DNA from: Escherichia coli | GTDB taxonomy: Bacteria > Pseudomonadota > Gammaproteobacteria > Enterobacterales > Enterobacteriaceae | Length of the DNA: 64,000 nucleotides | NCBI RefSeq assembly: GCF_003334785.1 | Contig: NZ_QOWV01000001.1 | Reading direction: 5' to 3' (one strand) | Shown: in pieces, positions 50,503 to 53,500 of the stretch | Position numbering within the stretch: position 1 is the first letter of the stretch | Layout of the letters: each line of letters opens with the position of its first letter | Made by a program: the position numbers and the translations under genes | The notes under the pieces: model-generated | The model's input: the letters and a program-made list of their open reading frames with translations, nothing else | What the model was told of the DNA's origin: nothing | The model's database searches: none

Positions 50503-53500
50503 TTACTCAACAGGTTGCGGACGCGCAGGAGCGGCAGAGGCATGATGTGTTGCCGTATGACCACCTGCGGCACCTTTACCTTCGAAGGCAAAAGTAGGGC
50601 GCTGCCAGTCACTGTGACGCGGTGCCTCCGGAACATATTCCGGTGCTGGAGCGCGCGTCATTGGCGCGGTAGCGTGGTTATGCTCAACGGTGACCTCAGG
50701 TTCGACCGCAGCTACCGTTTCAACTTCTGCTGCGACTTCAGCGACTACTGGCGCGGCAGGTTGAGCAACAACTTCAGGTTCAGCAACTACAACCTCAGCA
50801 GTTTCGACAACTTCTTCAATATCTGCCGTCTCTTCCTGCGGTTCAACCACCGGTTCTGCTTGTTCTGCAACTTCCTGGGCTACGGCAACATCAGACTCGG
50901 TAATCACCTGCGGCTGTTCAGTTACCGCGGCAGCGATCACTTCAGGATGCGTCGTTTCAACCACTTCCGGTTGCGGTTCGGCAACCTGAACGGGGGCTTC
51001 TACGACACCGGCCACTTCTTCAACAACTGGCGCGCTAACAACCGGTTCGATAGCGGCGGCGACAGGGACCTCAGTCACCATCGGCTGCACATGTACTTCT
51101 TCCTGTTCGCGCTGCTCTTCAACCTGTACATCTTGCGGACGTACAATTGGATAGCGGATCCAGACTTTGCCAGAGGCCAGTTCCGGAGACGCGCACGCTA
51201 CGGTCAACGGCATTGGCGACTGGGTTGGATAACGCTCGTCACGATAGCGACGACGACGCTGACCACTTACGCGCAGGTGACGAGGCGAGCGGCGAGAACG
51301 ACGCGGCATGCCACCGTTGTCACGGTTATCAGCATTGTTCTCTTCTTGCTGTTCTGGTGCAGTTTGCGCTACGACTGGCAGCGGGACTTTCACCAGTTCT
51401 GTGCGTGGAGCTGGCGCTTCCTGAACAATTGGTTCGGCAGCGACAGTTTCTTCAACCACCGGTGCGACTACCGCTTCTTCGGCTACGCTTTGCTCGTAAC
51501 GCACTTTCTGATTGAGCTGACGCTGTTTACGACGCGGCTGAACCGGACGTACACGTTCTTCCTGTTCGGTTTCCTGAACAGATTGCTCTTCAACATTCAG
51601 CGCCTTCGCTTCTTGTTGCGCCTGACGTTTATCATCATTACGGCGGCGGCTACGTTCACGACGCGGCGCTTGCTGCTCGTCGGCGGTACGCGCTTTTTCC
51701 GTTACCTCAGCCTGCTGACGGCTCTCACGCGTCTCGGCAGTCTGCTGCTGTGCCTGGCGACGATTACGACGGTTTTCTTCGCGATTATCGCTGCCTTCAG
51801 TACGTTCACTACGGGTGTCGCGGCGCTCATTACGGTCACGGCGGTTGTTCTGACGAGGCTTGCGACGATCCTGTTGACGTTCCGGTTTCGCTTCTGCTTT
51901 CGGTGCTGGTTGCTCGGTCGGTTTGGTTTCTTCACCACCGCTGAACAGCGCTTTCAGTGCGCCGAAGAAGCGGCTCAACAGCCCAGGTTGTGCAGGAGCT
52001 GCTGGTGTTGCCGGTGCAGCTTTCGGTGCTGGAGCTACAACAGGCGCGGCAGGTTCAGCTGGCGTTGGCGCAGGCGGCACATCCGGCATGGCAAAGGTTG
52101 CCAGCGCAGGTTGTTCCGGACGCTTACGTTCAGCGAACTCTTCTTCAGACGGCAGCGCCATCGCTTCTTCATGCAGCTTCGGCAGCATGTAGCTTAAGGT
52201 TGGGGTTTCTTCCCCTTTACGCACGCGCAGCACGTGGTAGTGCGGGGTTTCCATCTGATCGTTTGGCACAATTACACAGCGCACACCGTCCTGACGAGTT
52301 TCAATGGCATTTACCGCAGAACGTTTTTCATTCAGCAGGTAAGAAGCGATTGGCACAGGAACAATGGCGTGAACTTCCTGGGTGTTCTCTTTCAGCGCTT
52401 CTTCTTCGATCAGACGCAGAATAGAGAGCGACAGCGATTCGTTGTCACGCACGGTGCCAGTACCAGAACAACGCGGACAAACGTGATGACTGGATTCACC
52501 CAGTGATGGGCTCAGGCGCTGACGGGACATTTCCAGCAGGCCAAAGCGAGAAATATGGCTGATTTGAATACGCGCACGGTCCTGACGCACCGCTTCACGC
52601 AGACGGTTTTCTACCGCACGCTGGTGGCGTACTGGCGTCATGTCGATGAAGTCGATAACAATCAGGCCGCCGAGGTCACGCAGGCGCAGCTGACGAGCAA
52701 TCTCATCGGCAGCTTCGAGGTTAGTGTTAAACGCGGTTTCTTCGATATCGCCGCCGCGGGTCGCGCGTGCGGAGTTGATGTCGATGGCCGTTAACGCTTC
52801 GGTGCTGTCGATAACAATGGAACCACCAGACGGCAGACGAACTTCACGCTGGAAGGCGGACTCGATCTGTGACTCGATCTGGTAGTGGCTGAACAGCGGG
52901 ATCTCGCCGGTGTACAGTTTGATTTTGCTGCTGAAATCCGGGCGACCTAATGCAGCGATATGCTGACGTGCCAGTTCGAGCACTTTCGGGTTATCGATAA
53001 GGATTTCGCCGATGTCCTGACGTAAGTAATCGCGGAATGCGCGAACGATTACGTTGCTCTCCTGATGAATCAGGAACGGGGCCGGGCGGCTTTCAGCGGC
53101 TTTTTTGATGGCTTCCCAGTGTTTCAGACGGAAGCTTAAATCCCATTGCAGCGCCTCAGCAGATTTGCCGACGCCAGCGGTGCGCACGATAAGCCCCATG
53201 CCTTCCGGCAGTTCAAGGCTTGCCAGTGCTTCTTTTAATTCGGTACGGTCGTCGCCTTCGATACGGCGAGAAATGCCACCCGCGCGCGGGTTGTTCGGCA
53301 TCAGAACCAGATAGCTACCCGCCAGACTGATAAAGGTGGTTAATGCCGCGCCTTTGTTGCCGCGCTCTTCTTTATCGATCTGAACAATGACTTCCTGACC
53401 TTCACGCAACACATCTTTAATGTTGGGACGACCATGAGCACTGTAGTTAGCAGGGAAATATTCGCGGGCAATTTCTTTTAGTGGGAGGAAACCGTGACGT

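Follow-up and report, generated by a model that had tools for sequence, protein, structure and literature searches.

A 560-codon frame antisense to the scaffold region of Escherichia coli rne is very probably a non-coding shadow

Opposite the 3' half of rne, the gene for ribonuclease E, the plus strand of an Escherichia coli contig (NZ_QOWV01000001.1 of assembly GCF_003334785.1) carries an open reading frame of 560 codons, which raises the question of whether a second gene lies there or whether the frame merely reflects the protein encoded on the other strand. The window, that is, the whole stretch of 64,000 nucleotides that was analysed, was initially annotated from its letters alone, and the frame was then called an artefact; the ORF list confirms its presence and extent. 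The analysis presented here supports, with high confidence, the reading that this ORF is a non-coding "shadow" of rne, produced by the amino-acid make-up of the RNase E tail together with some luck.

The RNase E tail and the frame opposite it

The minus-strand gene is identified as rne over its entire length. The NCBIfam "ribonuclease E" equivalog NF008074 matches residues 1-1061 of its product with 2008 bits against a cut-off of 908, TIGR00757 recognises the Rne/Rng catalytic core at the N-terminus (571 bits, residues 13-425), and PF00575, PF10150 and PF20833, the S1 and RNase E/G domains, are recorded for the near-identical protein P0004. The 3' 1.7 kb is annotated as rne in all RefSeq records listed, and RefSeq also shows the full extent of the coding sequence. 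Ait-Bara, Carpousis and Quentin (2015, PMC4435900) described the non-catalytic RNase E scaffold of the degradosome, to which the tail in the window corresponds without difference in the protein. Read from the sequence, the MTS, AR1, HBS, AR2, EBS and PBS microdomains appear at their published residue numbers (Table 1), and the composition bias (R/N/Q and A/E/P/V) and the length variation between species described in that work are seen here too; the antisense ORF is not among its topics.

The tail consists mainly of Ala (14.7%), Glu (14.5%), Val (11.9%), Pro (11.3%), Arg (9.9%) and Gln (8.2%), with Arg-rich blocks at residues 613-724 and 781-836 and A/E/V/P-rich blocks at residues 837-1004. The initial annotation had described an Arg-rich and then P/A/E/V-rich, repetitive sequence, of which the composition and the blocks hold, while the repetitiveness does not extend to the DNA. 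There, Tandem Repeats Finder reports a single array of 12 nt x 2 and the dispersed repeats are only 60-85% alike, so that the candidate description of the DNA as repetitive was rejected in favour of compositional bias with no real repeat structure. The example peptide quoted at the time was off by one residue, and the sequence does not read AEPVV. Tail length ranges from 548 to 589 codons across the species tabulated, and the comparison of C-terminal length across strains that had been suggested does reveal variation, the rne product of GN4738 having 858 aa and that of strain 135 having 1099 aa.

Table 1. Features of the rne tail and of the strand opposite, in window coordinates
Feature	Position	Strand	Basis
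rne, ribonuclease E, 1061 codons + stop	50503..53688	-	ORF list; NCBIfam NF008074; RefSeq
Non-catalytic, intrinsically disordered scaffold region (residues 530-1061), A/E/V/P/R/Q-rich, Leu/Ser-poor	50506..52101	-	residue range PMC4435900
Membrane-targeting sequence (MTS), residues 565-582	51943..51996	-	coordinates PMC4435900, sequence read
Arg-rich RNA-binding segment AR1 (residues 604-644)	51757..51879	-	PMC4435900 coordinates mapped to window
RNase E scaffold segment	51496..51534	-	PMC4435900 coordinates mapped to window
Arg-rich segment AR2 (residues 796-814)	51247..51303	-	PMC4435900 coordinates mapped to window
RNase E scaffold segment	51139..51189	-	PMC4435900 coordinates mapped to window
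PNPase-binding site (residues 1021-1061)	50506..50628	-	PMC4435900 coordinates mapped to window
Terminator-like hairpin then T run, directly 3' of rne	50460..50483	-	consensus scan only
Antisense shadow ORF, 560 codons, TTG start, in register with rne codons 498-1058, judged non-coding	50515..52197	+	ORF list
In-frame TAA just before the open stretch, intergenic, 3' of the rne stop codon	50497..50499	+	sequence
TAA closing the antisense ORF, reverse complement of rne codon 498 TTA (Leu)	52195..52197	+	sequence
Polymorphic site: TGG here (sense CCA, Pro594), TGA elsewhere (sense TCA, Ser594)	51907..51909	+	strain comparison
Antisense ORF of 122 aa, other frame than the 560-aa ORF	51147..51515	+	ORF list
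Antisense ORF of 64 aa	51750-51944	+	ORF list
Antisense ORF of 89 aa	51923-52192	+	ORF list
Antisense ORF of 155 aa	51957-52424	+	ORF list
Terminator-like hairpin then T7, 3' of flgL, between the flgKL transcription unit and the antisense ORF	50349..50377	+	consensus scan + sequence

The stop-free stretch on the plus strand comprises 565 codons (50500-52194) and spans rne codons 498-1058; an alternative ATG at 50542, with a weak GGAG about 10 nt upstream, gives a product of 551 aa. Further plus-strand ORFs exist as had been noted, with sizes of 122, 64, 89 and 155 aa rather than a uniform 100 or so. The antisense product is rich in Arg (15.4%), Phe (13.2%), Leu (12.3%) and Thr (8.9%); Cys, which had been named along with the first three, reaches only 4.3%. 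Searches of Pfam and NCBIfam matched no family, in agreement with the original impression that the product has no recognisable domain, and codon-usage log-odds are +0.35 for the rne sense frame and -0.02 for the antisense ORF. Elsewhere in the window, a minus-strand ORF of 293 aa (58683-59564) lies in register with two plus-strand genes and provides a second example of a shadow frame.

Why the frame is open

An open stretch of 565 codons is far beyond what simple chance would give. When 50503-52200 was shuffled 500 times with dinucleotides preserved, the longest open run had a mean of 182 codons and never exceeded 385, and the longest in-register antisense runs opposite 29 other genes of the window have a median of 115 codons and a maximum of 193.

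The register offset between the antisense ORF and rne is 0. Each antisense codon is the reverse complement of an rne codon, and TTA, CTA and TCA are the only sense codons that yield an antisense stop; accordingly, the in-frame antisense stops across rne correspond to its 11 codons of these kinds, all at or before codon 498, the TTA that is the last of them. Both the register and this codon bookkeeping are established. Leu (15) and Ser (20) together make up just 6% of the 563 tail codons, compared with about 17% in other genes, and none of these 35 codons is TTA, CTA or TCA; among the 83 Leu/Ser codons of the N-terminal 498 codons (codon 498 included), 11 are.

These counts permit the openness to be apportioned. 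At the frequency of 2.69 such codons per 100 found in the 29 other window genes, a typical protein would have 15.2 antisense stops in 563 codons (P0 = 2.6e-7), whereas 4.9 are expected given the tail's own amino-acid sequence (P0 = 0.005) and 3.9 when the codon preferences of the N-terminal half are applied (P0 = 0.015). Most of the openness therefore stems from the tail being poor in Leu and Ser, leaving a residual chance factor of approximately 1/70 to 1/200. The earlier statement that a skewed, stop-poor tail keeps the opposite strand open is thus borne out and can be specified as Leu/Ser poverty, which lowers the expected stops from 15 to 4-5. For this one gene, zero antisense stops is a 0.5-1.5% event, unremarkable only if selection from the whole genome is allowed for.

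The mechanism begins with a disordered scaffold half built chiefly from Ala, Glu, Val, Pro, Arg and Gln, with few Leu and Ser codons. In this lineage none of the 35 happens to be TTA, CTA or TCA, and the plus strand thereby remains open from the rne stop to Leu498. The composition of the antisense product mirrors that of the sense strand: CCG (Pro) and GCG (Ala) read as Arg on the opposite strand, GAA (Glu) as Phe, CAG (Gln) and GAG (Glu) as Leu, CGT (Arg) as Thr, and GCA (Ala) as Cys.

The residual factor could alternatively reflect selection on rne itself, with the open frame as a by-product. TTA, CTA and TCA are minor codons, and avoiding them would serve smooth translation of a long disordered region; alternatively, selection may favour a purine-rich mRNA as protection against premature termination. 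The strongly purine- and A-rich sense strand of the tail (plus-strand AT skew down to -0.48) and the contrast in E. coli between zero such codons in the tail and 11 in the N-terminal part are in line with this explanation, but relatives speak against it. Among the rne genes of 80 Enterobacterales, these codons form a larger share of Leu/Ser codons in the tail (11.6%) than in the catalytic half (7.2%), and the tails show no depletion of antisense stops, 432 being observed against 317 expected. Each tail contains between 0 and 20 of them (median 4), and four of the 80 species contain none, close to the 5.1 expected by chance. E. coli strains also gain such codons freely, as illustrated by P594S, which creates TCA, and by a CTA acquired in the rne tail of strain 135. 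Selection on rne is accordingly very unlikely to account for the open frame, and amino-acid make-up with some luck remains the preferred reading.

Conservation, constraint and expression

If the frame were a gene, it would be a young antisense overlapping gene, limited to part of E. coli and translated from an antisense transcript, in the manner of pop, antisense to ompA in EHEC. Several observations lend themselves to this proposal: at 1683 nt it is on a par with the longest overlapping genes put forward for prokaryotes, likewise in frame -1 (PMC8850804); the probability of zero stops under synonymous resampling is 0.005-0.015; and the 560-codon ORF is intact in five of eight sampled E. coli strains, other lengths being 464, 464, 515 and 357 codons. 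With DNA divergence between the sampled strains and the window at only 1-3%, intactness carries little weight. The TGA allele at the polymorphic site shortens the ORF to 464 codons in UTI89, strain 16843 and the type strain ATCC 11775. Out of 5426 E. coli genomes, 187 or more carry this allele, and such premature stops count against a gene.

Beyond E. coli, the open antisense frame is broken in E. albertii, where the longest open run is 242 codons, and in Salmonella and Citrobacter. Open runs in related species vary in position and length, from 139 to 704 codons, and across the 80 species antisense stops are not depleted. The open frame is not conserved among related species.

The substitution pattern likewise weighs against an overlapping gene. 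In the tail, sense dN/dS is 0.09-0.12, whereas the antisense frame gives 1.06-1.35, and in the two closest comparisons 75% of the changes are at sense third positions. Protein-level constraint on the antisense strand would be expected to lower the synonymous rate of rne, but tail dS (0.42, 0.59 and 1.68) exceeds that of the catalytic half (0.31, 0.40 and 0.90), as it does in all five comparisons made, and the rate is not reduced over the overlap. The original view of the ORF as an artefact is consequently supported by its polymorphism, its lack of conservation, and a dN/dS of about 1.1-1.3 against about 0.1 for rne.

One statistic initially seemed to favour antisense constraint. OLGenie-style dNN/dNS for the antisense frame was 0.46, 0.34 and 1.04, and the values of 0.34-0.46 in the two closest comparisons fall below 1. 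Control genes without a long antisense ORF (flgK+flgL+rluC) yielded 0.43, 0.57 and 0.71, so the antisense frame does not lie below background, and the 0.34-0.46 signal was rejected as evidence of constraint since the controls give 0.43-0.57 for the same species pairs. In this register NS changes fall at sense first positions, where substitutions are conservative, and NN changes mostly at sense second positions, where they are radical. A uniform-omega simulation null was set aside, its range being too wide and conservative-versus-radical selection being ignored, and was replaced by the control genes. Absence of constraint on the antisense frame, like absence of its conservation, is established by these comparisons.

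Signals for expression were sought in the same region. A consensus scan, which proves nothing either way, detected no sigma-70-like promoter from the flgL terminator to the antisense ORF, nor any on the plus strand within the tail; a terminator-like hairpin lies upstream, between the flgKL unit and the ORF, while the weak GGAG before the ATG at 50542 would point the other way. The lack of domain matches disfavours an overlapping gene. Zehentner et al. reported 216 translated antisense candidates in EHEC, among which rne is not mentioned in the text or the 18 supplementary files, and the whole word "rne" is absent from a preprint on antisense transcription in E. coli. Taken with the stops and the substitution rates above, this makes a real overlapping gene extremely unlikely, and the ORF is probably neither transcribed nor translated. 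That the 560-codon frame is occasionally transcribed and translated where intact, yielding an antisense protein or proto-gene of very recent origin, confined to those lineages and built on a disordered-region template, is likewise extremely unlikely; if true, no longer antisense overlapping gene would be known from any bacterium.

Pervasive antisense transcription has been reported in E. coli. This general background is what would recommend the further idea that the plus strand gives rise to a non-coding antisense RNA regulating rne, with the ORF itself irrelevant, and nothing specific in its favour was found at this locus. Rfam detects in 49000-55000 only the rne 5' UTR element, which sits outside the tail; the consensus scan shows no promoter-like site on the plus strand within the tail, and the synonymous rate of rne is not reduced. 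A regulatory antisense RNA is extremely unlikely, and the non-coding shadow is retained.

False gene calls and known shadow frames

The initial annotation had proposed that such a region generates false gene calls. This is correct for public protein collections, which contain about 290 fragment antisense calls, and does not apply to RefSeq annotation of the locus, where rne is the only gene annotated in the 30 listed records, drawn from 5426 E. coli genomes. The exact 560-aa and 551-aa products were not found among about 15 billion proteins. Four false-call contexts were inspected, and in each of them an N-gap, frameshifts or a chimeric contig had disrupted rne; to judge from these, the antisense artefact enters databases only where rne itself is damaged. 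Among the calls are two RefSeq WP_ "hypothetical protein" entries under Pseudomonas aeruginosa, and the tail of a chimeric "ribonuclease E, partial" entry is an antisense translation. The low-complexity stretch attracts scaffold gaps, after which a gene caller chooses the antisense ORF.

The rne antisense ORF is an instance of the already known frame -1 shadow ORF effect. Long antisense non-stop frames in frame -1 were explained by sense codon usage by Merino (1994) and Silke (1997), as cited in Mir et al. (2012, PMC3454372). The present case resembles them in its exact register, in stops arising only from sense TTA, CTA and TCA, in a length set by the amino-acid and codon make-up of the sense strand, and in the lack of conservation or constraint. 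It differs in being unusually long, with 565 open codons compared with at most 193 in 29 other window genes, and in its main driver, which is disordered-region composition (Leu+Ser 6%), codon choice contributing only the chance factor.

Among proposed overlapping genes, olg1 and olg2 of Pseudomonas aeruginosa (Kreitmeier et al. 2022, PMC8850804) are the nearest comparison, sharing frame -1 and, in the case of olg2, a similar length (1728 nt, compared with 1683 nt here). They were backed by RiboSeq and mass spectrometry, by depletion of stop codons, by a lowered synonymous rate in the mother gene and by dNN/dNS values under 1. In rne, by contrast, the synonymous rate shows no reduction, relatives show no depletion of stops, dNN/dNS equals that of controls, and the ORF is broken in many strains.

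For the search for overlapping genes, these results bring a caution, as OLGenie-style dNN/dNS below 1 in frame -1 occurs in ordinary genes too. The locus has practical and teaching value as a clean, quantified example of an in-register antisense frame that is open for hundreds of codons, in which the amino-acid bias of a disordered region raises the chance of zero stops more than 10,000-fold.

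The scaffold tail of rne and the frame opposite it

The long antisense ORF lies in the flgK-flgL / rne / rluC region of E. coli and faces the non-catalytic, intrinsically disordered degradosome scaffold of RNase E (residues 530-1061 in the published range, PMC4435900). The identity of rne was established by its match to the NCBIfam ribonuclease E equivalog NF008074 (2008 bits, cut-off 908), and the membrane-targeting sequence, AR1, RhlB site, AR2, enolase site and PNPase site were all found at the residues published in PMC4435900. The initial annotation, which had blamed the skewed, stop-poor rne tail for artefactual antisense ORFs, agrees with the ORF list in coordinates and sizes; the peptide it quoted is one residue off, the sequence being AAPVV... 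and not AEPVV.... An alternative ATG start at 50542 would shorten the antisense product to 551 aa, and plus-strand ORFs of 122, 64, 89 and 155 aa are listed here in other frames.

Features at and around the rne locus, with a second shadow ORF of the window
Feature	Position	Strand	Remarks
Terminator-like hairpin with T7 run	50349-50377	+	3' of flgL
Predicted rne terminator	50483-50460	-	3' of rne
rne	50503..53688	-	1061 aa; ORF list
Antisense ORF	50515..52197	+	560 aa, TTG start
TAA closing the antisense ORF	52195-52197	+	rne codon 498, TTA
rne 5' UTR autoregulatory element, Rfam RF00040	53713-54049	-	upstream of rne; 260 bits, full length
Second frame -1 shadow ORF	58683-59564	-	293 aa, ATG start

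The antisense ORF starts 12 nt past the first base of the rne stop codon, so that each antisense codon is exactly the reverse complement of an rne codon (offset 0). At this offset, an antisense TAA, TAG or TGA requires a sense TTA (Leu), CTA (Leu) or TCA (Ser). Such codons occur 11 times in rne and never beyond codon 498, leaving a stop-free antisense stretch of 565 codons (50500-52194). The tail (residues 499-1061) is dominated by A (14.7%), E (14.5%), V (11.9%), P (11.3%), R (9.9%) and Q (8.2%), with Leu and Ser making up 6.3% of it versus 16.5% of the catalytic half; none of its 35 Leu and Ser residues (15 and 20, respectively) is encoded by TTA, CTA or TCA, which bears out the claim that stop-poor codons keep the opposite strand open.

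The composition of the antisense "protein" is a mirror of the sense tail: its Arg residues lie opposite Pro (46) and Ala (23) codons, Phe opposite Glu (62), Leu opposite Gln (46) and Glu (20), Thr opposite Arg (38) and Cys opposite Ala (21). The product had been called C/R/F/L-rich, which holds for R, F and L but not for Cys, at merely 4.3%, while Thr is also high. The description of the tail as repetitive fails at the DNA level, where Tandem Repeats Finder returned a single array (12 nt x 2) and dispersed repeats are 60-85% alike; the tail DNA is biased in composition, not repetitive.

Expectation and variation of the open frame

Under a naive null, the open frame exceeds chance: 500 dinucleotide shuffles of the region gave a longest open run of 182 codons on average and 385 at most, and in the 29 other genes of the window, with 2.69 TTA/CTA/TCA per 100 codons, the longest in-register antisense run does not exceed 193 codons (median 115). 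The appropriate null keeps the rne protein and resamples its synonymous codons. A typical 563-codon protein is expected to yield 15.2 antisense stops (probability of none, 2.6e-7), whereas the tail's own amino-acid sequence is expected to yield 4.9 with the codon usage of the window (0.005) and 3.9 with that of the rne catalytic half (0.015). Since the expectation falls from 15.2 to 3.9-4.9, composition raises the probability of none by more than four orders of magnitude, and the excess over the synonymous-resampling null is modest. The remaining chance of 1 in 70 to 1 in 200, a single-gene figure uncorrected genome-wide, is unremarkable for a single gene chosen from a whole genome.

Comparison of 80 Enterobacterales rne loci, taken from one scan of GTDB species representatives, revealed no depletion of antisense stops in their tails. 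Depending on the species, the longest open run in the antisense register spans 139 to 704 codons (242 in E. albertii); its position within the gene varies, and in some species it falls in the catalytic half. Tails carry 0-20 antisense-stop codons (median 4), and TTA/CTA/TCA take a larger share of Leu/Ser codons in the tail (11.6%) than in the catalytic half (7.2%). Given each species' own N-terminal codon choice, 317 such codons were expected in the 80 tails and 432 were observed; four tails have none (the window, Klebsiella oxytoca, Pluralibacter gergoviae and Pantoea piersonii), against 5.1 expected by chance.

Within E. coli, the region was found in all 5426 complete genomes, with rne as the sole annotation over it in all 30 of the records listed. 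Five of these 5426 rne-tail matches sit on plasmid-typed records, which may be replicons given the wrong type or pieces of chromosome. Eight strains chosen to span the identity range were compared, and the 560-codon ORF is intact in five of them. In UTI89 and strain 16843 it is cut to 464 codons by a TGA at 51907-51909, corresponding to sense Pro594 to Ser (CCA to TCA). By exact 33-mer match, at least 187 of the 5426 genomes carry this allele, the type strain ATCC 11775 among them, and 3751 carry the K-12 allele; the remaining genomes have other differences within the 33-mer. The length of the rne C-terminus, proposed for comparison in the initial annotation, does vary across strains: strain 135 (NZ_CP080260.1) encodes 1099 aa (+38 aa) and has an antisense ORF of 515 codons with a CTA codon in rne, and GN4738 (NZ_CM177114.1) encodes 858 aa, having lost 203 aa in-frame from the scaffold region, with an antisense ORF of 357 codons. 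In strain 135, a TacA-family antitoxin gene lies downstream of rne in place of flgL.

Selection, signals and known counterparts

By Nei-Gojobori estimates between the window rne and five relatives, sense dN/dS is 0.09-0.12 in the tail and 0.00-0.014 in the catalytic half, and the in-register antisense frame has 1.06-1.35. About 75% of tail substitutions fall at sense third positions in the two closest comparisons. Lowered synonymous divergence over the overlap was not found among the relatives compared, tail dS exceeding catalytic-half dS (0.42 vs 0.31 in L004, a locus labelled Escherichia coli SCPM-O-B-8794; 0.59 vs 0.40 in E. albertii; 1.68 vs 0.90 in Salmonella). This difference, consistent over the comparisons (50506-53688, minus strand, against L004-L009), may stem from the catalytic half being under stronger synonymous constraint or codon bias, or alternatively from more mutation or recombination, or alignment noise, in the tail. 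With a dS of 0.31-0.42 from the window, the rne of L004 (NZ_JAATUR010000009.1) is nearly as distant as that of E. albertii (0.40-0.59), far beyond usual within-species divergence, and by this distance L004 probably represents a cryptic Escherichia lineage that has been labelled E. coli.

OLGenie-style dNN/dNS for the antisense frame was 0.46, 0.34 and 1.04. Because the first two values lie below 1, control genes with many stops in their antisense frames (flgK+flgL+rluC) were tested, giving 0.43, 0.57 and 0.71. A dNN/dNS below 1 was thus rejected as a mark of antisense constraint, as it comes from the code in this register. In codon-usage log-odds per codon, rne scores +0.35 and the antisense ORF -0.02. 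No sigma-70-like site was found between the flgL/rne terminators and the antisense ORF or on the plus strand within the rne tail, and the product had no matches in Pfam (even at E <= 10) or among NCBIfam families, in keeping with its description as lacking a recognisable domain.

The second shadow ORF of the window is in register with the adjacent plus-strand ORFs 58080-59033 and 59049-59978, presumably fabH and fabD from gene order, and crosses the gene boundary. Long frame -1 antisense ORFs arising from sense-gene codon usage are a described phenomenon, for which Mir et al. 2012 (PMC3454372) cite Merino 1994 and Silke 1997. Among antisense genes claimed to be functional, the nearest counterparts are olg1/olg2 of P. 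aeruginosa, which also lie in frame -1 and reach 1728 nt; the case for them drew on translation data, depletion of stops, a lowered synonymous rate and dNN/dNS <1 (PMC8850804). The rne antisense ORF shares their frame but shows none of their sequence-based marks, whether stop depletion, synonymous rate or dNN/dNS, and rne was not found in the EHEC antisense-candidate lists. That the ORF encodes a young translated antisense protein is highly improbable.

False gene calls in databases

Among 5.8 billion clustered proteins searched, five relatives of the antisense product were found, and the exact 560-aa and 551-aa products were absent from that collection. Two clusters, of 268 and 23 member sequences, consist mostly of 320-416-aa fragments from ENA metagenome assemblies. 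In all four false-call contexts examined, rne is damaged, so the claim that the region yields false gene calls is right with one qualification: it happens when the true gene is interrupted. Two contexts are ENA metagenome scaffolds with a 100-N gap within the rne tail, L001 from E. coli (3815-3914) and L092 from another genus, its rne protein 79% identical (3842-3941, plus a contig end); in L092, antisense ORFs of 407 and 373 aa are called in place of rne. A 55-nt duplication flanks both sides of the gap in L001. The two scaffolds are independent, and assembly breaks seem to concentrate in the low-complexity tail. The third, L002, is a frameshift-ridden assembly with rne in seven frame segments. 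The fourth, L003 (5001-7282; LVRK01000076.1, GCA_001621075.1), is a contig-end fold-back joining rne nt 1-1728 to the reverse complement of nt 2218-1652, which, with the antisense frame open, gives a 760-aa protein. NCBI and UniRef list this protein, P0004, as "ribonuclease E, partial"; its C-terminal 185 residues come from translation of the antisense strand (179/185 identical to the window's antisense ORF). Its cluster contains 7 sequences, and the contig occurs in 4 samples.

Additionally, two of the cluster members have RefSeq accessions: WP_241365695.1 (289-bp contig) is 100% identical to antisense residues 236-331, and WP_343171840.1 (345-bp contig) matches the antisense ORF at 98 of 102 residues (96%). 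Both carry the RefSeq label "hypothetical protein, partial [Pseudomonas aeruginosa]" and are probably E. coli contamination of P. aeruginosa assemblies with the wrong strand called.

The observation of the initial annotation is confirmed, and its interpretation is supported and sharpened. Judged from sequence, the antisense ORF appears to be an ordinary artefact of an already-known kind. It owes its extreme size to a disordered region that is poor in Leu and Ser and, in this lineage, happens to lack three codons.
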